A stretch of 32,000 nt of DNA. Origin: Candidatus Saccharimonadota bacterium. Lineage in GTDB: Bacteria; Patescibacteriota; Patescibacteriia; 2-12-FULL-60-25. Positions 161 to 31,210 of the stretch are shown in pieces. The DNA lies in assembly GCA_016699205.1 (NCBI GenBank), contig CP064964.1, positions 1 to 32,000 of the forward strand. The letters run 5' to 3'. Below the pieces are notes generated by a model, which was not told the origin of the DNA, made no database searches, and worked only from the letters and a program-made list of their open reading frames with translations. A program made the position numbers and the translations under genes. Every line of letters begins with the position of its first letter. Position 1 is the first letter of the stretch.

Positions 161-901
161 TCAGTAGGCGAAGTCGTACCCCGGGTGCTCGTTGCCGAGC
201 ACGCGGGTGGCGACACGCCAGAGCGTCGTTGCGGCTCCGCAGTATCCGTCCGAGAAGCGCGAGGTGCGTCCGTAGACGAATGCGCGCTTCAGCGTCTGGA
301 AGTATGCTCCGAAGAACGCCTTCTCGCTGACGCCGTCGTTGTTCACCGTGTCGATGATCGAGCTCGCGGCCTTGTTGAGGTCGAAGAACTCGATCAGACT
401 CGTGCGGCCACCGTCGGTCGCGATTTTCCATCCGAGCGCAGTCCGTAGATCCGGAGCCGACTCGTAGTCGAAGTCGCCGTCGCAGTCGATGACCCCGATG
501 CTGGCGCCGTCCTTCTCGACGATGACCATGAGGGCCATGTCTGTCATGGCGACGCCCAGCCGCTTGGCCAAGCCTCGGTATCGGAGACCGCAGAGGTCGG
601 TCAGGAGCATCTGCTCCTGACCGAGCCTGGTCTTGCGATCGTTGCCGACGAGAACGCCGGTGACCTCGATGTCCTCGAGATTGAGGCGCTCGAGGTTGGC
701 GCGGATCACGTGCGGCGTCAGCGCGTCTGCCTCCCAGTAGAGGGAATGCGCCTCGGTCTCGAGGGCCTTGTAGTCGGGGTGCTTCTGAGCGTCCCCGAGG
801 TTGATGCCGTGCTCACGCGCGATCTGGTCGCGCATGGCGTACGCGCGATCGGATGCGATCTTGGCAGCCGACTGCTTCTCGAAGAACTTTTCGACGGTCA
901 T
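161..901 (-). CDS. hypothetical protein, 246 aa, extreme GC3 (compositional island); no family recognised
   Basis: ATG at 901-899 with AAGGAG (rc of 907-912) 5 nt upstream. The ORF-track start at 1021 lies in AT-rich promoter DNA and is rejected. Codons end almost entirely in C/G (GAC, TTC, CTC, ATC), supporting this frame. Stop TGA at 163-161. Confidence 0.7.
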   Translation of the reverse strand: MTVEKFFEKQSAAKIASDRAYAMRDQIAREHGINLGDAQKHPDYKALETEAHSLYWEADALTPHVIRANLERLNLEDIEVTGVLVGNDRKTRLGQEQMLLTDLCGLRYRGLAKRLGVAMTDMALMVIVEKDGASIGVIDCDGDFDYESAPDLRTALGWKIATDGGRTSLIEFFDLNKAASSIIDTVNNDGVSEKAFFGAYFQTLKRAFVYGRTSRFSDGYCGAATTLWRVATRVLGNEHPGYDFAY

Positions 902-979
902 GGCAACTCCTTGTAGTTGGTTGTTATGGAGCTTGTCATCCAGTGCTTTTGAGTACCAAATGCACTGAATTAACATCAG

Positions 980-1008
980 AATATAGCATAAAATATCGGT
1001 TTTGTCAA
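980..1008 (-). promoter_or_regulatory. sigma70-like promoter for the 161-901 gene
   Basis: On the minus strand: TTGACA (rc 1003-1008), 17-nt spacer, TATATT (rc 980-985). About 80 nt of leader follows, ending in AAGGAG. Confidence 0.45.
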
Positions 1009-1059
1009 GATTTCGTAGCATTATTTATTTTTCGCTACCAATCCGTGTATTATGCCGGA

Positions 1060-1434
1060 ATGCCATCAACTCATGCTACGTTTGTTCAATACGTTGCAGA
1101 AGATGTTTTGTCGGAATTGGAAGTGAAAACCAAGCGTATGTTTGGTGGGCACGGCTTTTATCATGCTGGCAAGATGTTTGGACTTGAAGCAAATGGAAAG
1201 ATCTATTTTAAAGTCGATGATGATACGAGACCGGATTACGAAGCGATGGAAAGCCAACCGTTTCAGTATTCGGCAAAAGATCGCAAAGCGGTAACGATGT
1301 CGTATTGGATGGTTCCGGAGGAAGTGTTGGAGGATCGCGAGAAATCCGTGGCTTGGGCGAGAAAGGCGATTGGTGTCGCCGAGAAGGCAAAAACAAAAAA
1401 GCCCCGACGCACCGCAGAGCGGGGCCAGGGCTAG
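1060..1434 (+). CDS. TfoX/Sxy N-terminal domain protein (124 aa)
   Basis: MPSTHATFVQYVAEDVL...KRMFGGHGFYHAGKMFGLEANGKIYFKVDD...SYWMVPEEVLED matches the TfoX_N pattern. ATG at 1060 is 6 nt after TATTAT (1048-1053). The upstream part of ORF 853-1434 is rejected. Confidence 0.75.
   Translation: MPSTHATFVQYVAEDVLSELEVKTKRMFGGHGFYHAGKMFGLEANGKIYFKVDDDTRPDYEAMESQPFQYSAKDRKAVTMSYWMVPEEVLEDREKSVAWARKAIGVAEKAKTKKPRRTAERGQG
1389..1425 (-). terminator. rho-independent terminator of the NUDIX gene, embedded in the tfoX-like 3' coding end
   Basis: Minus-strand reading is GCCCCG-loop-CGGGGC (1401-1406 / 1420-1425) followed by TTTTTTGTTTTT (rc of 1389-1400). Confidence 0.5.
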
Positions 1435-1436
1435 AG

Positions 1437-1961
1437 TCAGCGTTGCGCGCACCATGCCTTGTACATGGTCCAGGCTCCGAGCGCCTCAAAGGTCGTACGA
1501 CCCGAGAGGATGATCTCATTCCATTCGGAGATGTCGATCCAGTGATGCGTCAGACCATGCTCGCTCGTTTCGAGATCGGGTTTACCGGTGTCGATCGGAT
1601 CGTGGCAGGTGAAGACATGGTCGTAGGTGCAGCCGAGAACCCAGGCTTTGCCGACATACTCGACCGTTTCTGCTGCGTGGCCCGTTTCCTCACGCAGCTC
1701 GCGAATCGCAGCTTGTGCGTGGGTTTCTCCGGCGTTGAGCGTGCCTGCGGGGAATTCGACCAGACGCACATCGGCTCTGTGGCGATCCTGCTTGACGACG
1801 AGGAGCTTGCGGTCGCGTTCGCAGATGACGATAGCGCCATCGGGGCGTTCGCGTGCATAGTAGTCGATCTCGGAACCGTTGGGGAGGCGGACGCGATCGT
1901 GCAGGACACGAAAGAACGGATTTTGATGGATGATCTTACTAGAAAGAATTACGGATTTCAT
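1437..1961 (-). CDS. NUDIX hydrolase (ADP-ribose pyrophosphatase-like), 174 aa
   Basis: Nudix box GTLNAGETHAQAAIRELREETG. ATG at 1961-1959 with GGAGG 8 nt upstream. The long N-terminal extension of ORF 1437-2540 is rejected. GC is visibly higher than in neighbours. Confidence 0.85.
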   Translation of the reverse strand: MKSVILSSKIIHQNPFFRVLHDRVRLPNGSEIDYYARERPDGAIVICERDRKLLVVKQDRHRADVRLVEFPAGTLNAGETHAQAAIRELREETGHAAETVEYVGKAWVLGCTYDHVFTCHDPIDTGKPDLETSEHGLTHHWIDISEWNEIILSGRTTFEALGAWTMYKAWCAQR

Positions 1962-2030
1962 TCCAAAACCTCCGCGTCTGAAATTAGCAGGGTTTGGCCT
2001 AATCGGCAACGGTACTGATAGACTGTGCGC

Positions 2031-3017: not shown

Positions 3018-3053
3018 AGTTCAGCCAGCCTTCCGGGGCCGATTTTTCTGTCT

Positions 3054-4148
3054 ATGCAAGATAAAATAGTGATTCGCGGAGCACGCGAACATAACCTCAA
3101 AAACATTTCGTTGGAGCTGCCTCGCAACAAAATGATCGTGTTTACAGGCTTGTCCGGTTCCGGCAAGTCGTCCTTGGCTTTTGATACGATTTTTGCAGAA
3201 GGCCAGCGCCGATATGTGGAGTCGCTTTCATCGTATGCGCGACAATTTTTGGGACAGATGGATAAACCGGATGTGGATGAAATCGAGGGATTGAGCCCGG
3301 CGATTTCTATCGATCAAAAGGCGCACTCGGCCAACCCGCGCTCTACGGTCGCCACGATTACGGAGATTTACGACTATCTGCGTGTTTTGTATGCGCGTGT
3401 CGGTAAGCCGCATTGTCCTATTTGCCGCAAGCCGATCCGTAAGATGACCATTGATGAAATGGTTGATCGTGTTTTGAAGCGCACGGATGAAATTCATCGC
3501 ACAACGCCGGTTGGAGGAAAGGCTCCCAAGTTTACCAATGAGGTGACGGTGATGGCGCCAGTTGTTCGCGGACGCAAGGGTGAATATAGCCAGTTGATGC
3601 AGGATTTGTTTGAAGCCGGATTTATCGATGTACGCGTGAATGGCAAGATGTATAGCTTGCGCGATCGTATTCCGTTGTCACGTTACAAACAGCACAATAT
3701 TGAAGTGGTGATCGACCGCGTGCCGATTGCTTGGCCAGTAGAAGGAAATAAACAGTTACAGTCGCGTTTGAATGAAGCGATCGAGATGGCGATTGATCGA
3801 TCTGAAGATAACGTGATGGTTATTTTGGATGATGGATCGGAATTGCTCATGTCCGCACGTTTTTCTTGTCCGGATGACGGTTTTGCGTTTCCGGAGATCG
3901 AGCCGCGTTTGTTTTCGTTCAACTCGCCGTATGGCGCTTGTCCGACGTGTAATGGTTTAGGAACCAAGGATCTTTGGTCGGAGGAAACATGCGAGGCTTG
4001 TCACGGAAATCGTTTGCGAACGGAATCGTTGTTTGTTTGGTTGGGAGATAACAAGAATATCGTCGATGTTTCCGCGATGCCGATTACGGATGCGGCGGAT
4101 TTCTTTTTGGGACTGCCGATTAACAAAACGGAAGAAAAGATCGCCTAG
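3054..4148 (+). CDS. uvrA: excinuclease ABC subunit A, N-terminal fragment (364 aa)
   Basis: [67 protein letters not shown] (Walker A of module I). Zinc motifs HCPICRK and [10 protein letters not shown]...CEACHGNRL. Ends at TAG 4146-4148. Confidence 0.85.
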
Positions 4149-4154
4149 CCGATT

Positions 4155-5603
4155 ATGCGCGAGATTGTAGCGCGACTTTCTTTTTTGCTTGATGTTGGAC
4201 TTGAATATCTGACATTGAATAGAACGGCAGGAACATTGTCCGGTGGTGAAGCACAGCGCATTCGATTGGCTTCGCAAATCGGTTCGCGTCTTGTCGGTGC
4301 TTTGTATGTGCTCGATGAACCGACGATTGGATTGCATCAGCGCGATAACCAGCGATTGGTTGATACGCTGACGAAGCTTCGTGATATCGGAAATACGATT
4401 ATCGTTGTCGAACATGATGAAGATACGATTCGCGCTTCCGATTATTTGGTCGACATTGGTCCGGGGGCCGGAAAGCATGGTGGTCATATTGTTGCGGAGG
4501 GACCGATGCCAAAGGTTTTGCAGAATAAGGATAGCGTCACTTGTGCCTATTTGCGCGGCGACAAAGTGATCCCGATGCCAAATAAGCGTCGTGAGCCAGC
4601 CAAGGAACACATCACGATTCACGGAGCAACGGAAAATAATTTGAAAGACGTAACAGTGAAGATTCCGCTGCGTCGTTTTGTGTGTGTGACGGGAGTTTCA
4701 GGCTCGGGTAAGTCGACACTGACTATCGATGTTTTGTATCGCGAGTTAGCGCGCAAGCTGAATGGATCGACGGTGAAAGCGGGAAAGCATGGCGGTGTTG
4801 ATGGTATTGATTGGCTGGATAAGGTTGTTGACGTTGACCAGAGCGCGATCGGTCGTACGCCGCGTTCTAACCCGGCAACATATACAGGAATCTGGAATCA
4901 TGTTCGTGAGATTTTTACATTGACACCGGAAGCTCGTGTGCGCGGCTACAAGGTCGGACGATTCTCGTTTAACGTTCCTGGCGGTCGATGCGAACATTGT
5001 GAAGGAAATGGCCAACTCGCCATTGAGATGCACTTTTTGCCGACGGTGTATGTGCCTTGTGATATTTGTAAGGGACGACGTTTCAATCGTGAAACGCTTG
5101 AGGTGAAATACAAGGATAAGAATATTCACCAGATTCTCTCGATGACGGTTGAGGAAGGCGCGAAATTCTTCCGCGATGTTCCGCCGATTTATGATCGTTT
5201 GAAGATTATGGAGGAGGTTGGTTTGGCGTATATCACGCTTGGACAATCAGCGACGACATTGTCCGGTGGTGAGGCGCAGCGTATTAAATTATCGACGGAA
5301 CTCGCCAAGCGCGATACGGGAAAGACATTCTATTTGTTGGATGAGCCGACCACGGGTCTTCACTTTGAGGATATTCGAAAATTACTGGAGGTGTTACATC
5401 GTCTTGTGGCGCGTGGAAATACGGTGATGGTGATCGAGCACAACCTCGACGTGATCAAGAATGCGGATTGGATTATTGATATGGGACCGGAAGGCGGTGA
5501 TAAGGGAGGTAAAGTCATTGCGCAGGGAACGCCGGAGGATGTGGCCAAGTCGCCGAAGAGTTTTACGGGGAAGTATTTGAAGGAGGTTTTGAAAAAGAGA
5601 TGA
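4155..5603 (+). CDS. uvrA: excinuclease ABC subunit A, C-terminal fragment (482 aa)
   Basis: [17 protein letters not shown]...[11 protein letters not shown] (signature and Walker B of module I). [18 protein letters not shown]...[34 protein letters not shown] (module II). Confidence 0.85.
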
Positions 5604-6880
5604 TCCCAACCCAAATCAAAATCAAGAATGGCGAGTTGCCATCAAATCCGGGCGTTTACATCATGAAGAACGCCAAGGGAACGGTTTTGTATGTGGGAAA
5701 GGCGGTTTCACTTAAGCGTCGGGTGCAGCAGCATTTTGATCGACCGCATGGTCCGCAGATTCCGGAGATGACCAAGCAGGTTACGGAGATTGATTATATC
5801 GAAAAACCGACGGCGCTTGAGGCGCTTGTGCTTGAGGCGAACCTGATCAAGCATTTTTGGCCTAAGTACAACGTGATGCAGAAAGATAATAAGTCTTTCA
5901 TGTATTTGGGAATTACGGATGAGGATTTTCCGCGGCCGCTTCTTGTGCGCGGAACAGATCTCGATGATGAGACGGCAAAGAAATATAAAGTGGTGTTTGG
6001 ACCGTATACGTCGTCACGCTCGTTGAAGGCGGCGATGGATTTGGTACGCAAGGCTTTTCCGTGGTCGACTTGTATTCCAGGACAGAAGCGAGCGTGTTTT
6101 TATCATCATTTGAAATTGTGTCCGGGAGTTTGTGTTGATGCGGTTGATAAAAAAGTTTATCAGAAGACGATTCGGGATTTGATCCGCTTCTTTGAAGGTA
6201 AGAAGGAAGATATTTTGAAAGATTATAAGAAACAGATGACGAAGCTTGCGAAAGAAAAGAGATTCGAGGAGGCTGCGGAAATTCGTAATAAAGTCTATTT
6301 CCTCGAACACATTCAAGATGTGGCGGTATTGCGGCGAGATGATGAGCAAGTCGATCGCATCAAGCCGGGTGAGGGGATGGCGGTGAATTTGTTTGGACGT
6401 ATCGAGGGATATGATATTTCAAATATTTCTGGTACATCGCAAGTTGCCTCGATGGTCGTGTTTGAAAATGGCGCGCCTGCAAAAGCGGAATATCGAAAGT
6501 TTAAGATTAAATCAGTGGAAGGGCCGAATGATGTCGCATCGATGAGGGAGACGTTGATGCGTCGATTCAAGCATGACGAGTGGCGCATGCCGGATTTGAT
6601 TTTGATCGACGGGGGTTTGCCTCAGGTGCACGCCGCCGAAGAAGTGATGCATCATTTGAATATCCAGATACCGGTCGTCGGTATCGCCAAAGGAGCGCAA
6701 CGAAAGAGGAACGATATTATTTGTTCGCAAGTCTCAATCGAGCTATGCGAGTTGTGTCGTAAGTATGTCGATTTGTTGGCGCAGGTGAGGGATGAGGCGC
6801 ATCGATTTGCGATTACGTTCCATAAATCTGTCCGTAGCAGAGCCTTTTTAGGTAAAACAGGGAAACGAACTGGTAAATAG
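5600..6880 (+). CDS. uvrC: excinuclease ABC subunit C, short form (426 aa; no C-terminal HhH2 region seen)
   Basis: GIY-YIG N-terminus ([26 protein letters not shown]), UVR-like [16 protein letters not shown], endonuclease-domain [12 protein letters not shown] and [13 protein letters not shown] overlap with the uvrA stop. Confidence 0.88.
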
Positions 6881-6913
6881 GTTGGCTGGCGCTGGAGGGG
6901 TTGACAAGAATCA

Positions 6914-6941
6914 TTGAATTTGAGCCAAAAGAGCCTAAACT
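6914..6941 (+). promoter_or_regulatory. candidate promoter for the arginine kinase gene
   Basis: TTGAAT (6914-6919), 16-nt spacer, TAAACT (6936-6941) in the AT-rich flank just before GC rises. A TTGACA at 6901-6906 has no matching -10. Confidence 0.3.
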
Positions 6942-6981
6942 GTCAGGGCCCCATTTTTTGGGTTCTGAAAGGTTTTTACTC

Positions 6982-8070
6982 ATGCAGACACAGGCTCATC
7001 CCTCCAACGGTCACTCCTCTCCTATGTCCGATTCCCCGTCCCTCAACCCCCAGATGCTGATGCTGAAGCACCTCGCGGCGCTCGATCAGCGAACCCGCCA
7101 CGAGCTTCTCCAGAAGCGCACCTCGTCCAACTTCACGCTGGGCATGGCGGTCATCAGCGGCACGCTGAACCTCGACTCCGGAGTCGGCGCCTACGCCGGC
7201 GACGCCGAGGCGTACGACATGTTCGAGCCGTTCTTCGGCCCGCTCATCGCCGAGTATCACGGGTTCTCGGGGAACCACGTGACGGATTTCGACGTGACCA
7301 AGATCCCGACCGATCCGGTCGATCCGACGGGGGAGGCCATCGTCTCGACGCGCATCCGCGTGGGCCGCAACCTCAAGAACTACCCGCTCGCGCCGATGAT
7401 CTCCAAGGAGCAGCGCCTCGAGATCATGGAGCGCGCCGCGGCGACGTTCAAGGAGAAGTTCACGGGCGACCTCGCCGGCGACTTCTACCCGCTCGAGGGC
7501 ATGGACGAGAACGTCCGTCAGCAGCTCGTGAACGATCACTTCCTGTTCAAGCAGGGTGACCGCTTCCTCGAGGTCGTCGGTGCGAACCACGACTGGCCGT
7601 CCGGTCGCGGCATCTTCCACAACGCCGACAAGACGGCGCTCGTGTGGACCAACGAGGAGGACCAGTTCCGCATCATCTCGATGCAGAAGGGCGGAGACAT
7701 CCGCCAGGTCTTCGATCGTCTCGCCCGCATGGTGGCGATCCTGAACGATGCCCTGCCCTTTGCGTACCACGAGAAGTACGGCGCGATCACCTCGTGTCCG
7801 ACCAACCTCGGCACCGCGATGCGCGCGTCGGTCCACGTGAAGCTCCCGTTCGTGAGCGCACGTCCCGACTTCAAGCAGCTCGCCCAGGACCTCAAGCTCT
7901 CGATCCGTGGCATCCACGGCGAGCACTCCGAGTCCGAGGGCGGTGTCTACGACATCTCCAACAAGCGCCGCTTGGGCGTCTCGGAGGTCGAGGCCGTGCT
8001 CACGATGTACGAGGGTATCAAGCGCCTGCTCGAGATCGAGCGCGAGATGTCGGCCAAGGCGGCTGCCTAG
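6982..8070 (+). CDS. arginine kinase / phosphagen kinase, eukaryote-like two-domain type (ATP:guanidino phosphotransferase)
   Basis: LDSGVGAYAGDAEAYDMF, WPSGRGIFHNADKTALVWTNEEDQFRIISMQKGGD, active-site CPTNLGT, RGIHGEHSESEGGVYDISNKRRLG. The N-terminal helical domain is present. Start is uncertain (ATG 6982 or 7024; the ORF-track TTG at 6901 is rejected). Extreme GC3. Confidence 0.9.
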   Translation: MQTQAHPSNGHSSPMSDSPSLNPQMLMLKHLAALDQRTRHELLQKRTSSNFTLGMAVISGTLNLDSGVGAYAGDAEAYDMFEPFFGPLIAEYHGFSGNHVTDFDVTKIPTDPVDPTGEAIVSTRIRVGRNLKNYPLAPMISKEQRLEIMERAAATFKEKFTGDLAGDFYPLEGMDENVRQQLVNDHFLFKQGDRFLEVVGANHDWPSGRGIFHNADKTALVWTNEEDQFRIISMQKGGDIRQVFDRLARMVAILNDALPFAYHEKYGAITSCPTNLGTAMRASVHVKLPFVSARPDFKQLAQDLKLSIRGIHGEHSESEGGVYDISNKRRLGVSEVEAVLTMYEGIKRLLEIEREMSAKAAA

Positions 8071-8080
8071 ATCGCATGAG

Positions 8081-8142
8081 AGAGACCTTCCGGTCTCTGC
8101 CGAGCCCTTCCTGCGAAAGCGGGGAGGGCTCTTTCGTTTTTT
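8081..8142 (+). terminator. tandem-hairpin rho-independent terminator (copy 1 of a repeated terminator element)
   Basis: AGAGACC-TTCC-GGTCTCT (8081-8098). Then a 13-bp stem GAGCCCTTCCTGC-GAAA-GCGGGGAGGGCTC (8102-8131) with a GNRA loop, followed by TTTCGTTTTTT. G-U pairs occur only in the plus-strand reading. Confidence 0.75.
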
Positions 8143-8857
8143 AGAGACGTTCGTACAGAGCTTTGAAGATGTGTTTGATGAACTTTGCAAAAGCCGGGTT
8201 TTGAATTTCTAGAACTGATTCAGAATTGTAATCCAAAAAAAGCGTTGTATCGCCGTAGATGTAAGCGTTCACGTTGTGATCAAAGGGATCTTTTCCACCC
8301 AGAATTTTTACAGCTCGCTCAAGTTTAGGTGTGTATGTCGGTGCTAAAGCTGCATTCGTGATAACAAAATGCTCCGGCTTAATTTGTGCATCGGCTTTTA
8401 AGTATTTCTCGGTTAAATACTTTTTCCAATCAGATTTTGGGTTGCGTGAAGAGAAGCGGTAATAGATGTCGCCCTTCTTGAGGCTCGTGATAAATCGGTC
8501 TAAGGCATCTCTTACCGCAGGACGACCATGGTTGATTCGGATATCAGGACGGGTTGATTGGGTGGCTGACATGGATTCAAGTTCTGGCAGGATTTCTTGA
8601 AGCGTGCGAGTGCGTTGCTCGGTGATATTGCTCAATACACTTGGATCGCTAGCGACAAAGAGTTTGCGTTTACCTTTACGGGATTCTTGAAGAAGTCCCG
8701 CTGATACCAAAGAGGGGATGGCTTTATAGATATTTACGCGATGCAAGCCTGTGCGTCGGGAAATTTCCGCGATTGCGGCTGGGCCATCAGCTAACAAAGC
8801 GAGATAGATCTCGGCCTGTTCTTTGGGCAAACCGATCTCGATGAGTTTATTTAACAT
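8141..8857 (-). CDS. TrmB-family HTH transcriptional regulator (238 aa)
   Basis: MLNKLIEIGLPKEQAEIYLALLADGPAAIAEISRRTGLHRVNIYKAIPSLVSAGLL is a TrmB-type winged helix. ATG 8857 sits 7 nt after a perfect TTGACA-17-TATATT promoter, so this start is preferred over GTG 8878. Confidence 0.8.
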   Translation of the reverse strand: MLNKLIEIGLPKEQAEIYLALLADGPAAIAEISRRTGLHRVNIYKAIPSLVSAGLLQESRKGKRKLFVASDPSVLSNITEQRTRTLQEILPELESMSATQSTRPDIRINHGRPAVRDALDRFITSLKKGDIYYRFSSRNPKSDWKKYLTEKYLKADAQIKPEHFVITNAALAPTYTPKLERAVKILGGKDPFDHNVNAYIYGDTTLFLDYNSESVLEIQNPAFAKFIKHIFKALYERL

Positions 8858-8864
8858 AATTGTC

Positions 8865-8893
8865 AATATATATGACACTTTTTATTATGTCAA
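8865..8893 (-). promoter_or_regulatory. leaderless-type promoter of the trmB-like gene
   Basis: Minus strand: TTGACA (rc 8888-8893), 17 nt, TATATT (rc 8865-8870), 7 nt, ATG. Confidence 0.55.
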
Positions 8894-9030
8894 TTTTGCC
8901 AATGTTTATAGTATTAATAGGCGTATATTTATCTATAAACATGACACAAATGATCATTATTTATACATAAAATTAAGTATTTGCGTTAGGTTGTTGGTGC
9001 GAGCACATAACGTTCGCAAGGAGTATGAAC

Positions 9031-9444
9031 ATGATCCAGAATCTCATTGCTTTGCCTGTAGCGCGCGACTGGCGCGAACTGCTTTCTGTTTGCAAGTTTG
9101 CAGAGGTCGATCCGTACTTGGAGGCTCTCTGTTTGCGCGTAGCTACGGCGGCGGCTGCGAGTCAGGTCGGCTCGTATCGTTCGCGGGGAGTCATGACGCT
9201 CGCGGAAGTCGTCATCGAGATTCGCGCGAGTGGTTGGAACGCGGGAGGTATCCTGGAGCTGTTGGCCGTATGTTCTGTCGATGAGAATCTCTCGGAAGTC
9301 ATCGCGCCTGATTCTGTGTTCGAACACGCCGAGTATGGTCCGCTGATTCCGTATGTGACCAAGCGTCGTGGCCAGCGCGTGCTGGTTCTCGAGCCGCTTA
9401 CGGCGCAGATCTCGGATTCGATCCAGGTCTTGGTCATTCAGTAG
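9031..9444 (+). CDS. hypothetical protein (137 aa), no family recognised
   Basis: AAGGAG at 9018-9023 is 7 nt before ATG 9031; ATG 9025 is too close to the SD. Followed by two strong terminators. GC is moderately elevated. Confidence 0.6.
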   Translation: MIQNLIALPVARDWRELLSVCKFAEVDPYLEALCLRVATAAAASQVGSYRSRGVMTLAEVVIEIRASGWNAGGILELLAVCSVDENLSEVIAPDSVFEHAEYGPLIPYVTKRRGQRVLVLEPLTAQISDSIQVLVIQ

Positions 9445-9450
9445 GTTCTG

Positions 9451-9492
9451 CGAGCCCTTCCTGTGAAAGCGGGGAGGGCTTCTTTGTTTTTT
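9451..9492 (+). terminator. rho-independent terminator (copy 2 of the repeated terminator element)
   Basis: GAGCCCTTCCTGT-GAAA-GCGGGGAGGGCTT followed by CTTTGTTTTTTT. Near-identical to 8102-8142. Confidence 0.75.
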
Positions 9493-9499
9493 TAATTAA

Positions 9500-9530
9500 C
9501 AAAAACACCCCCGATGTCGGGGGTGTTTTT
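9500..9530. terminator. bidirectional terminator hairpin
   Basis: AAAAACACCCCCG-ATGT-CGGGGGTGTTTTT: a perfect stem flanked by an A-run and a T-run. Confidence 0.7.
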
Positions 9531-9549
9531 GTTTGGTGGCTTGGCGCTT

Positions 9550-9662
9550 AGGAATTGACACTCCGTAAATTCAAGATAATATTCCCTGCTTTGTTCGTCA
9601 AGCCTTCTCATGCGCGCCGGCGAGGGGGATTCGAACCCCTTCGTCATGGAGTGTCAATTCCT
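9550..9662. repeat. 15-bp perfect inverted repeat AGGAATTGACACTCC (9550-9564) / GGAGTGTCAATTCCT (9648-9662)
   Basis: Read directly. The arms are exact reverse complements separated by 83 bp. Each arm contains TTGACA pointing into the enclosed segment. Confidence 0.95.
9555..9582 (+). promoter_or_regulatory. candidate promoter inside the left inverted-repeat arm
   Basis: TTGACA (9555-9560), 16-nt spacer, TAATAT (9577-9582). Confidence 0.4.
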
Positions 9663-9687
9663 GACGAGCACCTCGCCACCGGCACGC
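9611..9687 (-). ncRNA. tRNA-like structured element, non-canonical (not a clean cloverleaf; strand uncertain)
   Basis: The minus strand reads ...AGGGG-TTCGAAT-CCCCC..., a canonical T-loop. Acceptor-like pairing GCCGGTG/CGCCGGC. A 9-bp hairpin TCGTCAGGA-ATTGACAC-TCC(A)TGACGA stands in place of the anticodon arm. There is no D-arm and no encoded CCA. Confidence 0.35.
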
Positions 9688-9751
9688 TTTATACTCCGTT
9701 CACTTTTTTGAAGGATTTGTCAAGGGTGGATATCGCGAAAAGACAAGTTTC

Positions 9752-9761
9752 GGGGGGGGGG
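9752..9761. repeat. homopolymeric G10 tract
   Basis: Ten consecutive G, immediately upstream of TGATATAAT. Confidence 0.95.
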
Positions 9762-9770
9762 TGATATAAT
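9762..9770 (+). promoter_or_regulatory. extended -10 promoter element (TGaTATAAT) for the 9780 gene
   Basis: TG-A-TATAAT at 9762-9770. ATG at 9780 is only 9 nt downstream, with no SD, giving a leaderless or near-leaderless mRNA. Confidence 0.55.
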
Positions 9771-9779
9771 GCGGCGTAT

Positions 9780-10241
9780 ATGAATGAAACGTTTACGCAA
9801 AAGGTTATTGTAGCGCTGCTTATTATTTTAGTGGCGTTATCGGGTGTGAGCATGTATGTCATGAATGCGCAGCTTAGATCCATAACGCAATTACTCCAGA
9901 CATCCTCTAGTTCAAGTTTGCAGCAAGCCTGTGTTACATCTGGCGGAGAATTACAAAATGGTACTTGTGTTTGTGAGAGAGATTACGTTCTTGAGAACGG
10001 CATGTGTATGGGTCAGGATGGAATGACGCAAAAGGAGTTGAATGAAGTGAAGATTGGGCAGGAGAAGTTGATGAAACAAACGGCTTGTTTGGACTCGGGT
10101 GGAAGTTTTACAAACGGAAGTTGTGATTGTGGAGATGAGTATACTCTTGAGAATGGGGAGTGTGTTGGAGCTATTGGTGGGACGAAAAAAGAAATCGAAG
10201 AAAGTAAGGTTAATCAGGAACGTTTGTTAAATAGTCGTTAA
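9780..10241 (+). CDS. membrane-anchored protein with two tandem 52-aa Cys-rich repeats (153 aa)
   Basis: N-terminal TM segment VIVALLIILVALSGVSMYV and a Ser-rich linker. Repeats at aa 50-101 and 102-153 share AC-x2-SGG-x3-NG-[ST]-C-x-C-x2-[DE]Y-x-LENG-x-C-x-G...KE-x2-E-x-K-x2-QE. Confidence 0.8.
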   Translation: MNETFTQKVIVALLIILVALSGVSMYVMNAQLRSITQLLQTSSSSSLQQACVTSGGELQNGTCVCERDYVLENGMCMGQDGMTQKELNEVKIGQEKLMKQTACLDSGGSFTNGSCDCGDEYTLENGECVGAIGGTKKEIEESKVNQERLLNSR

Positions 10242-10281
10242 GTGGGAAACAGAGTTACCCACATAGGAACGTAAAACGAAC

Positions 10282-10311
10282 AAAAAATGCGCTGTAACAA
10301 GCGCATTTTTT
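10282..10311 (+). terminator. rho-independent terminator (bidirectional shape)
   Basis: AAAAAATGCGCT-GTAACA-AGCGCATTTTTT. Confidence 0.8.
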
Positions 10312-10326
10312 AGTTGTTCACTAACT

Positions 10327-10355
10327 TTGACCAATGTTGCTTTGTGGCATAGAAT
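10327..10355 (+). promoter_or_regulatory. mraZ (dcw cluster) promoter
   Basis: TTGACC (10327-10332), 17-nt spacer, TAGAAT (10350-10355). Confidence 0.55.
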
Positions 10356-10378
10356 GGATTGCAGTGGGATGAAGTGGA
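10344..10378 (+). promoter_or_regulatory. MraZ-box array: four TGG-containing pentamers at exact 10-bp spacing
   Basis: GTGGC 10344, ATGGA 10354, GTGGG 10364, GTGGA 10374. They overlap the -10 and the start of the transcript. Confidence 0.5.
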
Positions 10379-10406
10379 AAATTCTCTTCACCCGCAATCC
10401 GTTCCT

Positions 10407-10838
10407 ATGTTCATCGGTGAGTATCATCACACGCTTGATGAAAAAGGCCGGATGAGTGTTCCGGTCAAGTTTCGTGCATCCCTGGCGGAAGGTGCCGTGG
10501 TTACACGCGGACTTGATCGATCGTTGTTCCTTTATCCCAAGAGCGAGTGGCAAACACTTGCCGAAAAGCTGGCGTCCTTGCCGTTTGGCCAGGCTGACAC
10601 CCGCGCTTTTGCCCGCTTAATGCTGGCTGGCGCGATGGAAGTCGAGGTCGACAAATCCGGACGCGTGCTTCTTCCGGAATACCTGCGTGAATACGCCGCC
10701 CTCGACAAGTCTGTCGTGGTCGCGGGTCTGTATAACCGTTTGGAAATTTGGGATGAGGCTACGTGGAAGGAGTACTCGGCTAAAACCGAGTCCGAGGGCA
10801 ATGCTATCGCCGAACGTCTTCAAAACCTCGGCGTATGA
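10407..10838 (+). CDS. mraZ: transcriptional regulator MraZ
   Basis: MFIGEYHHTLDEKGRMSVPVKFR... and a second SpoVT/AbrB-like half, VEVDKSGRVLLPEYLR. ATG 10407 is preferred over the ORF-track start at 10359. Confidence 0.9.
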   Translation: MFIGEYHHTLDEKGRMSVPVKFRASLAEGAVVTRGLDRSLFLYPKSEWQTLAEKLASLPFGQADTRAFARLMLAGAMEVEVDKSGRVLLPEYLREYAALDKSVVVAGLYNRLEIWDEATWKEYSAKTESEGNAIAERLQNLGV

Positions 10839-11728
10839 ACCAGACTGTCCACATTCCCGTGATGCTCGAGGAAACCATGCTTGGTCTCGAGGTACGGCCG
10901 GGCGGTATCTGGGTCGATGGTACGCTCGGCGGCGGTTCGCATACGCGGGCCCTGCTCGAACGCTCTGCTCCAGATGGCATCGTGTATTCATTCGACGTCG
11001 ATCCCAAGGCGCTGGAACGCGCCAAGGAATCGCTCAAGTCGTTTGGAGATCGATTCCAGCCGGTGGAAGCCAACTTTCGTCATCTCGACGATCGATTGGC
11101 GGAGCGCGGCGTCATGAGTGTTGATGGAATCCTGCTTGATCTCGGCGTCTCCTCCGACGAGATCGCAGATCCTTCCAAAGGACTTTCGTTCATGACAGAA
11201 GGTCCGCTCGATATGCGACTCGGTCCCAAGGCGAATGAAGACGGTCTCACGGCCGCCGACATCGTCAACACATGGAAGCCTAACGAGATCGAACAGCTGA
11301 TCAGAGAATTTGGAGAGGAGAAGTTTGCCAAGCGTATCGTCGACGCGATTGTGTCAGCGCGAAAATCGCATCGCATCACGCGCACGACGGAGCTGGCGGG
11401 AATCATCAAGCAGGCGGTACCGGCAGGGTATGAGCGCGGTCGGATTCATCCGGCTACGCGAACATTCCAAGCCTTACGCATCGCCGTGAATGATGAGATC
11501 GAGGCGCTTAAAGAAGCGATCGATGGAAGTCATCGGATACTCGCGGCAGGCGGAAGTCTCGCGATCATCTCCTTTCACTCGTTGGAAGACCGCATCGTTA
11601 AAACGGCTTTCAAGGACAAGGAACGCTGGGAACCGCTCACGAAGAGACCGCAGGAAGCAACAGAGGCAGAGATTAGTAAGAATCCAAGATCGCGCAGTGC
11701 AAAAGTTCGTGTCGCAAAAAAGAAATAA
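10835..11728 (+). CDS. rsmH: 16S rRNA (cytosine1402-N4)-methyltransferase RsmH
   Basis: HIPVMLEETMLGL...DGTLGGGSHTRALLE...DLGVSS...SFHSLEDRIVK. ATGA overlap with mraZ. Confidence 0.92.
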   Translation: MNQTVHIPVMLEETMLGLEVRPGGIWVDGTLGGGSHTRALLERSAPDGIVYSFDVDPKALERAKESLKSFGDRFQPVEANFRHLDDRLAERGVMSVDGILLDLGVSSDEIADPSKGLSFMTEGPLDMRLGPKANEDGLTAADIVNTWKPNEIEQLIREFGEEKFAKRIVDAIVSARKSHRITRTTELAGIIKQAVPAGYERGRIHPATRTFQALRIAVNDEIEALKEAIDGSHRILAAGGSLAIISFHSLEDRIVKTAFKDKERWEPLTKRPQEATEAEISKNPRSRSAKVRVAKKK

Positions 11729-11733
11729 AAAAC

Positions 11734-12099
11734 ATGGCCCGCTCAAACATCACCACGCTTAGACAACCGCATCTTGCGCTGGGTTTGTCATTGGCTCCTG
11801 GACGCAAACTTGAAAAAGCTGCTCGTAATGCTTGGGTTGGCGTTTTCCTCGTTTTGTCTTTTTTGACCATGGCTGTGCACGTGTATCAGATGAACAAGTC
11901 CGCAACGAAGGGTTATACGTTGCGTGAGCAGGAACAGCGTCTGGAGAAATTGAAAGCGACGGTTGCCCAGCTGGAAGATAATGCCGCAAAGAATCAGGCT
12001 TTGCGTACGATTGAGGAACGTGTGAAAGGATTGGGCTATGTCCCGGTCGATCGCATGGAATTTCTTGACGTGTCGCGAGGTTCTTACGCCGTGCGTTAG
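11734..12099 (+). CDS. FtsL-like cell division protein (single TM + coiled coil)
   Basis: Sits directly after rsmH. TM segment WVGVFLVLSFLTMAV followed by a heptad-rich segment REQEQRLEKLKATVAQLEDNAAKNQ. Confidence 0.6.
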   Translation: MARSNITTLRQPHLALGLSLAPGRKLEKAARNAWVGVFLVLSFLTMAVHVYQMNKSATKGYTLREQEQRLEKLKATVAQLEDNAAKNQALRTIEERVKGLGYVPVDRMEFLDVSRGSYAVR

Positions 12100-12178
12100 C
12101 GCCTCGAGCCGCGATTCCAAAAATCATTTGGAAGCGCAGCCCGGTGCGGTTCGCTTGTCCCCGTTGCCGGCTAAAAGT

Positions 12179-12215
12179 GATCCTCCCCACTCGCGTGCAG
12201 GGAGGATCTCTTGTT
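12179..12215 (+). terminator. terminator/attenuator-like hairpin after the ftsL-like gene
   Basis: GATCCTCCC-12 nt loop-GGGAGGATC (12179-12208) followed by TCTTGTTTG. Confidence 0.4.
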
Positions 12216-12230
12216 TGCTATACTTTTCCC

Positions 12231-12611
12231 ATGTCGATGCCCGTGGTTGGCTTGATCCGCTTGTTCCTGTCCGAAACGCTCGGAAGCCTGATTCGTTTTC
12301 CATTTTGGTGGTATACGGAGGGTTTGATGGAAGCAGCGCGCTGGTGTGCTCGAGGCCTTCACTATCGATGGGAAAGCGCGGGGCTGGTTGTCTGGATGCG
12401 TAACTTTTTTGTTCCGATGTATGGCCAGCATGATTTGGCTGGGCGATTGGTGAGCGTGGTGATGCGTTTTGTGGTGCTGATCGGCAGGTTAATTGGCTTG
12501 CTGGTCGAGGCGATCGGATATGGTCTTCTTTTATTTGTTTGGGTTTTGCTGCCGGCCGTGTCCTTGATCCTGCTTATTGATGCTTTGTTCCGTAATGTGA
12601 TTGGTAGCTGA
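12231..12611 (+). CDS. hypothetical small membrane protein (126 aa)
   Basis: ATG 12231. Hydrophobic C-terminal half LVVLIGRLIGLLVEAIGYGLLLFVWVLLPAVSLILLI. Its stop is 1 nt before the start of the Clp-like gene. Confidence 0.55.
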   Translation: MSMPVVGLIRLFLSETLGSLIRFPFWWYTEGLMEAARWCARGLHYRWESAGLVVWMRNFFVPMYGQHDLAGRLVSVVMRFVVLIGRLIGLLVEAIGYGLLLFVWVLLPAVSLILLIDALFRNVIGS

Positions 12612-12612
12612 T

Positions 12613-15320: not shown

Positions 15321-15350
15321 ACACCCCGACCGCGTAAGCAATCAGGGGGT
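15321..15350 (-). terminator. imperfect terminator hairpin for the 15350-15874 gene
   Basis: Minus strand: ACCCCC...GGGGT stem with an internal GC-GTAA-GC, followed by GTTTGTTTTATT. Confidence 0.35.
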
Positions 15351-20372: not shown

Positions 20373-20398
20373 GGTTTAAAGGGAATCGGCAAAAATCA

Positions 20399-20406
20399 TG
20401 TATAAT
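20399..20406 (+). promoter_or_regulatory. -10 element (TGTATAAT) of the leaderless permease gene
   Basis: TATAAT at 20401-20406 is preceded by TG. ATG at 20415 is 8 nt downstream, with no SD. Confidence 0.45.
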
Positions 20407-20414
20407 ATCGATTA

Positions 20415-22807: not shown

Positions 22808-23293
22808 TCAGGGGGCTAGGGCCTTTGCGACCAAGGGTGCGAATCCGCCCTTTGGGGCGTGGATGATTGTGCCTTGGAGGGCGTGCATGGTGACGATGGA
22901 ACGGCGTCGTTTGGATCGGCGACAGCCGTAACTGCGAGACAAGACGTGGATGGTGTCGACCTGTGCCGGATCAAAGAGCCGGAACAGGGAGACGAGGCGT
23001 TGGTTGGGATCACGGTTCCACGTCGTCCAGCCGAGGAGATTCTCTTCTCGGTCGACGAGGTAGATCACCTCTTTGCGAACCATGATAGGACCGCATTGGC
23101 GCTTGATATCCGGCAGGAGGCTGAAGATGCTTGGGATTGTGCGCAGCAGAATCATGTGGTCGGCGTACCAGACTTGGTAGCTTTCTGCGATGGAGATCGC
23201 GCGATCGGTCGGGGCGCTCCAGTAGAACTCAAAGGCTTCGCGCTCAAGGAACGAGTAGCGTGCGCGAACCCGATGGTACGGGGGATGCGGCAT
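22808..23293 (-). CDS. hypothetical protein (161 aa), elevated GC3, no family recognised
   Basis: ATG 23293 with AAGGAGG 4 nt upstream, and its own terminator. Inserted between folD and uppS. Confidence 0.65.
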   Translation of the reverse strand: MPHPPYHRVRARYSFLEREAFEFYWSAPTDRAISIAESYQVWYADHMILLRTIPSIFSLLPDIKRQCGPIMVRKEVIYLVDREENLLGWTTWNRDPNQRLVSLFRLFDPAQVDTIHVLSRSYGCRRSKRRRSIVTMHALQGTIIHAPKGGFAPLVAKALAP

Positions 23294-26412: not shown

Positions 26413-26444
26413 AAAAACTCCCCGACGAGCGGGGAGATTTTTTA
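26411..26444. terminator. bidirectional terminator between pyrG and rpmA
   Basis: AAAAAAA-CTCCCCG-ACGAG-CGGGGAG-ATTTTTTA. Confidence 0.75.
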
Positions 26445-26741: not shown

Positions 26742-26788
26742 AAATCAAAATTGGGAGATGGGCGCTAGGTTACGCGAAGTCTGGTGAC

Positions 26789-26816
26789 TTGTCAAGCGGG
26801 TGATTATGCGTTAAAT
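26789..26816 (+). promoter_or_regulatory. candidate promoter of the nifU-like gene, overlapping a face-to-face rpmA -35
   Basis: TTGTCA (26789-26794), 16 nt, TTAAAT (26811-26816), 10 nt, ATG. The same palindromic CTTGTCAAG gives TTGACA-17-TAACCT on the minus strand. Confidence 0.35.
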
Positions 26817-26826
26817 TCTGCTTTAT

Positions 26827-27075: not shown

Positions 27076-27083
27076 CCCTTGTC

Positions 27084-28510: not shown

Positions 28511-28514
28511 AATC

Positions 28515-29633: not shown

Positions 29634-29635
29634 TT

Positions 29636-30742
29636 ATGAAAACGATTGCTTTTGCCGGAGGAGGAACGCTTGGACCTGTCACGCCGCTTTTGGCCGTGGC
29701 GAAGGCGATCAGGATTGCTTCGTCACGGACTCCTCGCAATGACACCTTCGAATTTGTCTGGTTTGGAACGCCGGATGGACCAGAGCGTGCGGTGGTTGAA
29801 GCGGAGGGAATGCGTTTTATCCCGATTACGGTTGCCAAGCTGCCGCGACATGTTGATATTCGGTTATTTACGTTCCCATTTGATTCGATGAAGGCACATC
29901 GTGAGGCAAAAGAGGCGCTTCAATCGATTAAGCCTTCTGTGGTGGTGACGGCTGGAGGGTTTACCGGCGTTCCGGTGGTGAGAGAAGCAGCGAAGCTCGG
30001 TATTCCGTGCGTGATGCATCAATTGGATGTTGTTCCGGGTTTGTCGAATCGTGCCGTGGCTAAATTATGCCAATCGATCACGACTTCATTTGAGTACGAT
30101 AAATTGCCTTTTGGAGTCGAATCAAAGCGGATTGCGACGCCTTCACGTTTTTTATCGGAAGTGATGCCGACGAAGCAAGAGGCGCGTCAGCATTTTGGTT
30201 TTGATGATACAAAGCCCGTGGTTTTGATTGTTGGCGGAGGGACGGGTGCATCGGCATTAAATCACGCGATTGATCATGAACTGGAAGGATGGTTGGGATT
30301 TGCTCAGGTTTTGCATGTCACAGGAAAAGGAAAGATGGAGTCCCGGAATAATCGCCAAGGATATGTTGTACGAGAGTTTTTAAATGCTGAAGAGATGAAG
30401 TATGCGTATGCCGCGGCTGATTTGGTGGTGACGCGCGCTGGCATTGGGGCTCTGTCAGAAGTTGCTGCTCTCTCTAAGCCTGCCGTTATTGTGCCGATTT
30501 CCGGGAATCAGCAGGAGGAGAATGCCAAGGCTTTTCATCGCGCCAAGGCTGGGTTGTATGTGAAACAGGATCAGGAGGATTTTTCCAGCATTCTTGTGAA
30601 GTTGGCAAAGCATATTTTGTCTGATGCGCGAGAACTTGAGCGCATGGGAAACGCAGCGCATGAATTTTTTGCTACGGATAATGGAACGGAGTTGGGAGAG
30701 TTGGTTCTCAAGATTGCTTCGCTGTCGGACTCCTCGCAATGA
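29636..30742 (+). CDS. murG: UDP-GlcNAc:lipid I N-acetylglucosaminyltransferase MurG
   Basis: AFAGGGTLGPVTPLLAVAKA, LIVGGGTGASALN, VVTRAGIGALSEVAALSKPAVIVPISGNQQEENA. Confidence 0.9.
   Translation: MKTIAFAGGGTLGPVTPLLAVAKAIRIASSRTPRNDTFEFVWFGTPDGPERAVVEAEGMRFIPITVAKLPRHVDIRLFTFPFDSMKAHREAKEALQSIKPSVVVTAGGFTGVPVVREAAKLGIPCVMHQLDVVPGLSNRAVAKLCQSITTSFEYDKLPFGVESKRIATPSRFLSEVMPTKQEARQHFGFDDTKPVVLIVGGGTGASALNHAIDHELEGWLGFAQVLHVTGKGKMESRNNRQGYVVREFLNAEEMKYAYAAADLVVTRAGIGALSEVAALSKPAVIVPISGNQQEENAKAFHRAKAGLYVKQDQEDFSSILVKLAKHILSDARELERMGNAAHEFFATDNGTELGELVLKIASLSDSSQ
29709..29744 (+). repeat. direct repeat copy 1 (19-nt perfect core CGGACTCCTCGCAATGACA at 29726-29744)
   Basis: Read directly. Preceded by TCAGGATTGCTTCG and a 3-nt spacer TCA. 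Confidence 0.95.
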
Positions 30743-30744
30743 CA
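30708..30744 (+). repeat. direct repeat copy 2 (19-nt perfect core at 30726-30744, contains the murG stop)
   Basis: Read directly. Preceded by TCAAGATTGCTTCG and a 4-nt spacer CTGT. The core is exactly 1000 bp from copy 1. Confidence 0.95.
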
Positions 30745-30751
30745 TATATAA

Positions 30752-30779
30752 ACGCCTCGCACGGAGTTGTGCGAGGCGT
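30752..30779. terminator. terminator hairpin between the convergent murG and the 30806-31210 gene
   Basis: ACGCCTCGCAC-GGAGTT-GTGCGAGGCGT is a perfect 11-bp stem. On the minus strand it is followed by TTTATATAT. Confidence 0.65.
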
Positions 30780-30805
30780 ACTAGTTAAGGAAGAGGATGG
30801 TGCGG

Positions 30806-31210
30806 CTACTCCGCCCACACGAGCGCGCTCTCGAGGTCCTGGAGCATGAGCTCGATTTTGTGCCATCCGCTGAGGGTGATGGTGGCCGTCTGGTAGCCGC
30901 TCCGGGGCCCCTTGCGCATCGGACCGCTCGCACCTTCGCGCTCGACGTGATCGGCGCAGGTGATGGGGACCTCGATCGTGAACAGCTGTGCTTTGTTGCG
31001 CGCGTGCTCTTTCTGCAGCTCGTTGATGAGCTTCAGGAGCTCGGGCTTGGAGCAATAGCCGAGCTCGCCGGTCCACAGGTGGTCGCCCTGCTGTCCGAGG
31101 TTGGCAGTCAGCGAGGCGATGTAGAGGCCGTTGTCGGAGCGATGGAACGACATCTCGCGGATGCGGCCGTCGGGCAGATTTTGGGAGAAGGCGCGAATCA
31201 GTGTCAGCAT
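30806..31210 (-). CDS. hypothetical protein (134 aa), extreme GC3 (compositional island); no family recognised
   Basis: ATG 31210; GGAG 8 nt upstream; stop TAG at 30808-30806. By hand count 117 of 134 codons end in G/C. Confidence 0.7.
   Translation of the reverse strand: MLTLIRAFSQNLPDGRIREMSFHRSDNGLYIASLTANLGQQGDHLWTGELGYCSKPELLKLINELQKEHARNKAQLFTIEVPITCADHVEREGASGPMRKGPRSGYQTATITLSGWHKIELMLQDLESALVWAE

Follow-up and report, generated by a model that had tools for sequence, protein, structure and literature searches.

Does the extreme third-position composition of single genes in a small genome mark recent foreign DNA, or can it be maintained by the genome that carries it? This question is raised by the first 32,000 nucleotides of contig CP064964.1 (assembly GCA_016699205.1), the whole stretch that was analysed and is here called the window, which is part of a ~1.08-Mb Candidatus Uhrbacteria genome (Patescibacteria, or Candidate Phyla Radiation, CPR). 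An initial annotation had flagged seven singleton genes in it as acquisitions from high-GC donors at different stages of amelioration. Our results show that three of them, an arginine-kinase-type gene and two genes named hyp246 and hyp134, are true compositional outliers with one common codon dialect, and that the "mosaic" of composition covers fewer genes and is of greater age than first proposed. The window adds a CPR arginine kinase not described before and a codon regime that is both unusual and conserved.

Codon usage in the window is strongly asymmetric between strands, with a GC skew above zero over its whole length, and the first principal axis of codon usage, with 43% of the variance, corresponds to this asymmetry. 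Backbone genes on the plus strand are rich in G and T at third positions (C3 ~0.14, G3 ~0.35, T3 ~0.32; mean third-position G+C content, GC3, 0.54), and those on the minus strand in C (C3 ~0.45; mean GC3 0.59, range 0.44-0.67, with DnaB and YbaB at 0.65-0.67). When genes are scored against those of their own strand (strand-matched z), three stand out, the bias being given also as effective number of codons (Nc):

161 to 901, minus strand: hyp246, 246 amino acids; GC3 0.87, Nc 34, z 3.4; family almost only on CPR/Uhrbacteria contigs
6982 to 8070, plus strand: arginine (phosphagen) kinase, eukaryote-type, two-domain by Pfam; GC3 0.91, Nc 30, A3 0.01, T3 0.07, z 6.6
30806 to 31210, minus strand: hyp134, 134 amino acids, very small Uhrbacteria family; GC3 0.87, Nc 36, z 3.5

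Hierarchical clustering of relative synonymous codon usage (RSCU, k=3), a check that had been proposed, places exactly these three genes in a cluster of their own, the other two clusters being the plus-strand backbone (with 9031-9444) and the minus-strand backbone (with the NUDIX gene, 15350-15874 and 22808-23293). The statement that they use almost only G/C-ending codons holds (GC3 0.87-0.91 against ~0.54 and ~0.59 for the plus- and minus-strand backbone), as does that of a GC change at the gene edges, the enrichment ending at the start and stop codons of all three. GC content is 0.63-0.64 inside the genes, 0.38-0.45 upstream and 0.50-0.55 downstream. Because first and second codon positions are ordinary (GC1 0.61-0.62, GC2 0.40-0.42) and the flanks are not GC-rich, the anomaly is limited to the synonymous sites of the reading frames. 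Two other parts of the original description need correction: the window measures 51.6% GC, not the ~47% given for the backbone, and the belief that only one of the seven genes has a family fails, as Pfam identifies 6982-8070 as an ATP:guanidino phosphotransferase.

The relatives used below are a sister species (loci L001-L006, from a 1,018,534-bp JGI contig and five further JGI/Logan assemblies) and a distant relative, L007. The remaining four flagged genes had been called intermediate:

1437 to 1961, minus strand: NUDIX hydrolase; GC3 0.67, z 1.0; same-site orthologue in the sister genome
9031 to 9444, plus strand: hyp139; GC3 0.66, z 2.2; orthologue after TrmB in L007
15350 to 15874, minus strand: hyp174; GC3 0.63, z 0.6; fast-evolving same-site orthologues in L001 and L007
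22808 to 23293, minus strand: hyp161; GC3 0.73, z 1.7; strong Shine-Dalgarno (SD) sequence and terminator; without a Pfam family

This class is mostly a strand artefact, because three of its four members lie on the minus strand, where native GC3 reaches 0.65-0.67. Indeed, by RSCU these three cluster with DnaB, RecR, YbaB and FolD. The composition of the NUDIX gene and of hyp174 matches that of their same-site orthologues, their strong/weak (G/C versus A/T) discordance per synonymous site is ordinary (0.28 and 0.35), and on sequence comparison both are vertically inherited. The only mildly unusual gene of the four is hyp139, whose G/(G+A) is 0.83. The supposed series of stages of amelioration is not supported.

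Two of the three outliers are long-standing residents. In the sister species the kinase is 96% identical in protein sequence, lies between uvrC and mraZ and has a GC3 of 0.91, and the six assemblies are identical base for base over the gene and 800 nt on each side. In L007 it is 72% identical, occupies the same uvrC-to-mraZ site with a GC3 of 0.78 against 0.48 in the backbone, and is followed by TrmB and the hyp139 orthologue. Kinase GC3 is thus 0.91, 0.91 and 0.78 in the window, L001 and L007, on backbones of 0.48-0.53. Likewise, hyp134 has an orthologue in the sister species (L008/L009) that is 74% identical, also beside murG, and has a GC3 of 0.94. Recent acquisition does not fit these placements.

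Furthermore, the composition of these two genes is not decaying. Divergence was measured between the window and the sister genome unless stated, with L007 as the outgroup for polarised changes. Ordinary genes show a synonymous divergence (dS) of 0.5-1.07 and a strong/weak discordance per synonymous site of 0.21-0.36. The corresponding values are 0.16 and 0.054 for the kinase (p = 5.5e-19 for the discordance) and 0.29 and 0.12 for hyp134 (p = 3e-4, likewise), to be compared with 0.18 and 0.10 for rplU, 0.10 and 0.065 for rpmA, 0.23 and 0.098 for YbaB, and 0.10 and 0.073 for MraZ. Synonymous sites of the kinase and hyp134 hence change 2-8 times slower than those of the backbone, like those of ribosomal-protein genes. 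After correction for composition, their excess identity at fourfold sites is still higher (0.73 and 0.61) than that of ordinary genes (0.36-0.45). The low dS does not reflect recency, because nonsynonymous divergence (dN) of the kinase equals that of ClpC (0.023 in both) and is high in hyp134 (0.147). Polarised synonymous changes in the kinase, taken over both lineages, comprise six from GC to AT and three from AT to GC, so that losses are not in excess; ClpC has 73 from GC to AT, and the rate per GC site in the kinase is ~8-fold lower (p = 2e-11). Between the window and L007, dS is at least 1.5 for most genes and the backbone is near saturation, and yet kinase GC3 is still 0.78-0.91. A neutral GC-rich insert should lose GC at least at the turnover rate of the backbone, and the opposite is seen. 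This demonstrates that the synonymous sites of the kinase and hyp134 are actively held G/C-rich; we infer the same for hyp246 from the behaviour of its family.

The dialect itself was then compared with that of the native genes. The outliers favour CTC over CTG, CGC and GGC, and CCG over CCC (except hyp134, which has few proline codons); GAG, AAG and CAG account for 89-96% of their choices, and CGG, AGG and GGG are avoided, the first and last of these also by native genes. The choice between C and G within codon boxes tracks the backbone of the window (r = 0.97 for the plus strand, 0.85 for the minus strand) and follows high-GC Uhrbacteria less well (0.79 for L020, 58% GC, and 0.26). Native plus-strand genes spread along C/(C+T) from 0.19 to 0.60, with rplU, NifU and MraW highest, and are flat in G/(G+A) (0.53-0.73). 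Since the outliers are extreme on both axes (0.88-0.90 and 0.81-0.96), they form a discrete group and are not the tail of a native trend.

Several of the flagged genes carry signals that conventionally go with strong expression. Pairing with the anti-SD at a free energy of -6.6 or below was found for six of the seven against one or two of 29 backbone genes (Fisher p ~1e-4 or lower), in agreement with the strong SD sequences originally noted on most of them and rarely in the backbone. The claim that each has its own hairpin terminator stands for five of the seven, which have strong hairpins. A promoter of the form TTGACA-17-TATATT, also noted before, precedes hyp246 as a near-consensus match; it is the joint best of the window, tied with that before TrmB. 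Over ~100 genes of related loci, SD strength and GC3 are weakly correlated (rho = -0.21). The elements around the outliers are:

907 to 912, minus strand: SD AAGGAG of hyp246, 6 nt before the ATG, free energy -8.1
980 to 1008, minus strand: promoter-like TTGACA-17-TATATT of hyp246, with an upstream TG; 11 of 12 consensus positions
6943 to 6968, plus strand: hairpin in the 5' leader of the kinase, just upstream of its start
8101 to 8142, plus strand: strong hairpin terminator of the kinase gene, also the first copy of a 42-nt direct repeat
9451 to 9492, plus strand: second copy of the 42-nt terminator repeat, after hyp139; 90% identical to 8101-8142
30752 to 30779, minus strand: hairpin terminator of hyp134; 11 pairs, 8 of them G-C
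31219 to 31269, minus strand: conserved region upstream of hyp134, with a TTGACA box at 31264-31269 and GGAG at 31219-31222, the SD being conserved

The explanation that we find best, and to which we would give an even chance of being right, is that these are accessory genes, some of them acquired long ago, in which selection for expression keeps the synonymous sites rich in G/C. Three monocistronic genes would be kept at ~90% G/C at third positions by selection on synonymous coding sites, most likely serving high or robust expression through translation efficiency, mRNA stability or both. Selection on expression level or mRNA stability is favoured because synonymous conservation resembles that of ribosomal-protein genes and because promoter, SD and terminator signals are strong. 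The origins would be mixed. The kinase would be an ancient acquisition, of a family that entered bacteria long ago from a eukaryote-like source, and would have been in place before the three sampled lineages split; hyp134 would belong to a lineage-restricted family and predate the split of two lineages; and hyp246 would be a cassette beside a tRNA gene.

Several observations weigh against this explanation. The kinase is the one flagged gene of the seven without a good SD. The only ribosomal-protein genes compared, rplU and rpmA, reach a GC3 of just ~0.6, so the three outliers would need stronger selection than ribosomal proteins, and their push towards G over A goes beyond the native C-versus-T axis and is not a simple extreme of the ribosomal-protein pattern. 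On both counts expression selection fits poorly. The site of hyp246 is empty in the sister genome, the same families lie near backbone GC3 in L016 and L010, and a donor within the phylum is possible, as L020 and L018 carry native-looking hyp246 homologues on backbones with a GC3 of 0.77 and 0.81-0.90.

The reading first proposed takes the high GC3 as a passive, ameliorating donor signature, left by repeated and fairly recent single-gene acquisitions from high-GC donors, perhaps a host. It would account for the common dialect of the outliers, for the eukaryote-like kinase, for the hyp246 family in high-GC Uhrbacteria, for the variable neighbours (hyp141 found only in L008, and a kinase-to-mraZ interval that differs among strains) and for the lack of the hyp246 cassette beside tRNA-Ser in the sister genome, tRNA flanks being classic integration sites. 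The kinase and hyp134 already contradict this model, as they predate the lineage splits and are undecayed, with slow synonymous sites and no excess of strong-to-weak changes. Native GC1 and GC2 and flanks that are not GC-rich leave no donor flanking DNA visible, and three of the four intermediates that would have made up the series are a strand effect. No integrase or transposase domain was found in the Pfam scans of window genes, nor any att-like repeat in the window. No non-CPR high-GC homologue of hyp134 or hyp246 was found among 5.8 billion proteins, and the homologues that were checked are CPR-like, mostly from Uhrbacteria, save two partial matches on metagenome-assembled genomes (MAGs), which leaves the proposed high-GC host donor without a candidate. 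The high-GC Uhrbacteria do not supply the dialect either, as L020 uses AAA at 0.53, GAA at 0.55 and CGG at 0.32. As an account of all three genes, we consider a donor signature improbable.

L020 and L018 were also tried as simple donors. Their overall RSCU fits the outliers better than the window backbone does, but their Lys, Glu, Gln and Arg codons differ and their within-box choice between C and G fits worse than that of the window's own backbone, and both were rejected. GC1 and GC2 were set aside as a donor test, since those of L020 are similar and the comparison does not discriminate.

Another possibility, which we regard as unlikely, is that the outliers are relics of a GC-richer ancestor (GC3 ~0.8) whose backbone drifted towards AT and left the ancestral codons in a few constrained genes. 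Related Uhrbacteria do have backbone GC3 values of 0.77-0.9, L020 shares with the outliers the preference for CTC over CTG, and the low dS of the outliers would follow from constraint. On the other hand, ribosomal-protein genes also have a low dS and are only at ~0.6 GC3, the outliers exceed the L020 backbone and do not match its codon choice for Lys, Glu, Gln and Arg, and the hyp246 cassette is an indel and not a conserved core gene. GC-biased gene conversion at recombination hot spots, which would drive GC up, is in line with the position of all three genes beside strain-variable segments, but we hold it very improbable: the enrichment affects third positions only and does not extend beyond the reading frames, the upstream flanks being at 0.38-0.45 GC and the downstream ones unremarkable, and the adjacent variable genes are GC-poor (TrmB 0.44, hyp153 0.40). 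That GC-rich foreign fragments were mis-joined into the contig, which probably comes from a MAG, has next to no probability, since no supporting point was found and the kinase and hyp134 arrangements recur in relatives and that of hyp246 in L017, with the same junctions in assemblies of independent origin from JGI, Logan and NCBI (base for base in six of the sister species, also in L007 and L008/L009, and at 98.4% over 1.5 kb in L017).

Selection for expression could be taken one step further. Uhrbacteria may possess a small "GC3-locked" class of accessory genes whose codons are selected for mRNA stability or preferential translation, an extension that we put forward as doubtful. If it were true, the class could serve a particular life-cycle or host-attached state, and extreme GC3 would mark a functional regulon and not ancestry; an arginine-kinase phosphagen buffer would be one of its members, a store of high-energy phosphate for an ultra-small, metabolically poor cell.

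The kinase matches both domains of its family in Pfam: the catalytic domain PF00217 (E = 2.8e-69, profile positions 2-202 of 203) and the N-terminal helical domain PF02807 (E = 3e-13, above the curated cut-off), which separates it from McsB. Aligned to its best solved relative, the sea-anemone two-domain arginine kinase 4rf6 (375 bits per domain), it has an intact reactive-cysteine motif, CPTNLGT, and the acidic stretch NEEDQ. It scores 306-375 bits per domain against arginine kinases (arthropod ones ~330), ~230 against creatine kinases and 75-86 against McsB, with E-values of 1e-98 to 1e-220 for arginine kinases and of 1e-20 to 1e-23 for McsB. On this evidence it is a complete phosphagen kinase of the arginine-kinase type, predicted to phosphorylate free L-arginine. 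In the NCBI annotation its start is at 7024 (348 aa, QQR60851.1, "arginine kinase [Candidatus Uhrbacteria bacterium]"), and homologues are found on other CPR-like contigs as well. With 4rf6 far closer than the bacterial McsB, an ultimately foreign, eukaryote-like ancestry is supported for the kinase. The literature searched contains no paper that connects either arginine kinase or GC3 codon bias with CPR. Arginine kinases do occur in bacteria, with a distribution described as highly skewed towards Proteobacteria (PMC11492440).

The 5' leader of the kinase (6900-6981 in the window, 9920-10000 in L001, ~1040-1119 in L007) is kept in the three lineages. Its TTGACA box is conserved in L001 and L007, GAAAGG stands 9 nt before the ATG, and the hairpin at 6943-6968 is present in the window and L001 only. 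Conservation of this kind suggests that the leader may be regulatory. An Rfam scan of the window at gathering thresholds, including the leader, gave no structured RNA.

Downstream of the kinase, the two 42-nt terminators flank a block made of TrmB and hyp139. In the sister genome an unrelated 241-aa gene takes the place of this block, and L007 keeps TrmB and the hyp139 orthologue; by this comparison of loci the kinase-to-mraZ interval is a strain-variable hot spot. On two other CPR-like contigs, GC3-rich orphan genes lie just downstream of an arginine kinase (L010 7295-8071 and 8663-9439, L012 7364-8026; GC3 0.73, 0.80 and 0.88). The two with the highest GC3 are marginally similar to each other (E = 0.027, WDNR motif). 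These genes were considered as a link to hyp246 and discarded, as they are not its homologues.

For hyp134, six full-length cluster representatives were found among 1.8 billion. Its predicted model (predicted local distance difference test, pLDDT, 87) has a beta4-alpha-beta4-alpha topology, two beta-beta-beta-beta-alpha repeats that form one domain, and its best Foldseek match is a weak one to human PUR-alpha (probability 0.97, TM-score 0.36, root-mean-square deviation ~10, E = 7e-3). Scans of IMG/VR with profiles of the hyp134 and hyp246 families returned no relatives that would point to a viral origin. Between the hyp134 orthologue and murG, L008 has an additional 141-aa gene at 6390-6815 (hyp141, GC3 0.78), a further GC3-rich singleton of variable presence, absent from the window.

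Of the three outliers, hyp246 is the only insertion-like case, a mobile or losable one-gene cassette:

1 to 1043, no strand assigned: hyp246 cassette (terminator, gene, SD, promoter), between tRNA-Ser(GGA), which lies off the left edge, and tfoX

The cassette is present in the window and in L017 and absent from the sister genome, where the tRNA-Ser(GGA) gene (L001 3472-3559) ends 52 nt before tfoX; in the window ~1.04 kb separate the two, and BLAST similarity to the sister resumes at 1044. In L017, a Logan contig from the window's own species that is 98.4% identical over 1.5 kb spanning NUDIX, tfoX, hyp246 and the tRNA, an identical 3' end of the tRNA directly adjoins the hyp246 terminator. 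The search for empty sites that had been called for thus yields one for hyp246, in the sister genome, and none for the kinase and hyp134, which sit at the same site in relatives.

The hyp246 family comprises 35 homologues found. The contigs that were checked are CPR-like or titled Uhrbacteria or Patescibacteria, apart from two partial matches, on MAGs whose titles read Gammaproteobacteria and Bdellovibrionales. The motifs IRANL, LSDLCGLRY, ATDGGR, TSRFGDGYCGAAT and LWRVATREL are strongly conserved. There is no Pfam match, and the AlphaFold model (pLDDT 96, predicted TM-score 0.90) has no Foldseek neighbour in the PDB or BFVD, so its fold may be undescribed.

Homologues elsewhere sit in unrelated contexts and, in most of the mid-GC genomes examined, exceed their neighbours in GC3: 0.83 in L014 (backbone ~0.6), 0.85 in L015 (~0.55), 0.77 in L019 (~0.6) and 0.82 in L021 (46-50% GC backbone, GC3 ~0.5). 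That of L016 (0.63) is native to its contig, and those of L020 (0.80 against 0.77) and L018 (0.90 against 0.81-0.90) are native in composition. Because these GC-richer Uhrbacteria carry native-looking homologues, transfer within the phylum is plausible for the family. The closest distinct homologue of hyp246 is 70% identical with synonymous sites nearly saturated, and near-saturation is seen in all pairs compared (the window with L014, L015 and L016, and L014 with L015). In L021 the homologue lies within a 6.5-kb GC-rich island (~6500-13000, 55-67%) of a 46-50% GC Uhrbacteria backbone, an island that also holds duplicated small cysteine-rich genes (CCCWDDGYCGDCHR… twice). On L016, a 56% GC Patescibacteria contig, the gene of ribosomal protein S15 (5194-5454) has a GC3 of 0.84 against 0.62-0.69 for most neighbours, suggesting, for some relatives at least, an increase of GC3 with expression.

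The rest of the window is a housekeeping backbone. Pfam scans over its 37 candidate genes identified TfoX, NUDIX, UvrA, UvrC, TrmB, MraZ, MraW, ClpC, a family-4 glycosyltransferase, DUF192, L21, RecR, YbaB, DnaB, an amino-acid permease, FolD, UppS, PyrG, L27, NifU, MraY, FtsW and MurG. Most of these genes are without an SD, and the SD-led genes are mostly lineage-specific singletons. In several backbone genes a -10-like box (TATAAT, TAAATT, GATATAAT, TAGAAT) lies only 3-9 nt before the start codon, as at 20393-20414, 26805-26826, 9758-9779 and 10337-10358, a spacing that suggests widespread leaderless or SD-independent initiation in the backbone. UvrA is broken by an in-frame TAG at 4146-4148, between open reading frames 3054-4148 and 4155-5603. 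The sister genome has GAG at this position (…EKIAEPIMREI against …EKIA*PIMREI in the window) and UvrA of strain L002 is also split, at another point; the TAG is either a true nonsense mutation, making uvrA a pseudogene, or an assembly error. At the right end, a polyprenyl synthase gene begins at 31300 on the plus strand and runs past the end of the window (31300-32000). In the sister genome (L008 950-5909) it is followed by genes for a phytoene synthase, a phytoene-desaturase-like oxidase, UbiA and a carotenoid-synthesis protein, and by gene content this neighbourhood is a carotenoid-type cluster in a ~1-Mb CPR genome.

These results call for caution in genome scans, where the extreme GC3 of a single gene is read as recent foreign DNA: two of the three outliers are long-resident and constrained, and half of the supposed GC3 gradient is replication-strand asymmetry. 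They also place an animal-type arginine kinase, complete and conserved in position, in Candidatus Uhrbacteria, and a phosphagen system would be relevant to energy buffering in such ~1-Mb, probably host-dependent cells. In addition, hyp246 represents a well-conserved, almost CPR-only family with a confidently predicted fold and without a solved or viral structural neighbour.

Two known patterns of composition frame the outliers. In the model of Lawrence and Ochman, horizontally transferred genes and islands are reportedly atypical in composition and ameliorate with time. The window resembles such islands in its atypical third positions and in one cassette that lies beside a tRNA gene with an empty site in a relative. 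It differs in that the outliers are without mobility genes or att repeats and have native GC1, GC2 and flanks, and in that two of the three are old residents in which synonymous change is slowed, with no net flux from GC to AT. Translational selection as described by Sharp and Li is said to give highly expressed genes a strong codon bias and reduced synonymous rates. The Nc of 30-36, a synonymous divergence as low as that of ribosomal-protein genes (kinase and hyp134), the preference for C over T seen also in native rplU, MraW and NifU, and the strong promoter, SD and terminator of some outliers are all of this kind. Contrary to that pattern, the bias here is far above that of the present ribosomal-protein genes and includes G over A in Lys, Glu and Gln codons.

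For the kinase, the known systems are McsB, which acts with ClpC in Firmicutes, and the eukaryote-type arginine kinases of other bacteria. With McsB it shares the superfamily of the catalytic domain, and in each of the three lineages a ClpC homologue is encoded on the same strand ~4.5 kb downstream; unlike McsB, it has the N-terminal domain for small substrates, and mcsA and ctsR are not nearby. The arginine kinases of Desulfotalea psychrophila, Myxococcus xanthus, Sulfurovum and Moritella (PMC11492440) are closer counterparts, as they share with the window kinase both phosphagen-kinase domains and an intact CPTNLGT, are likewise far nearer to animal enzymes than to McsB, and have a patchy distribution that is put down to horizontal transfer. 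Unlike them, the window kinase resides in a ~1-Mb Patescibacteria genome, keeps its position across Uhrbacteria lineages and has a GC3 that is both extreme and conserved.

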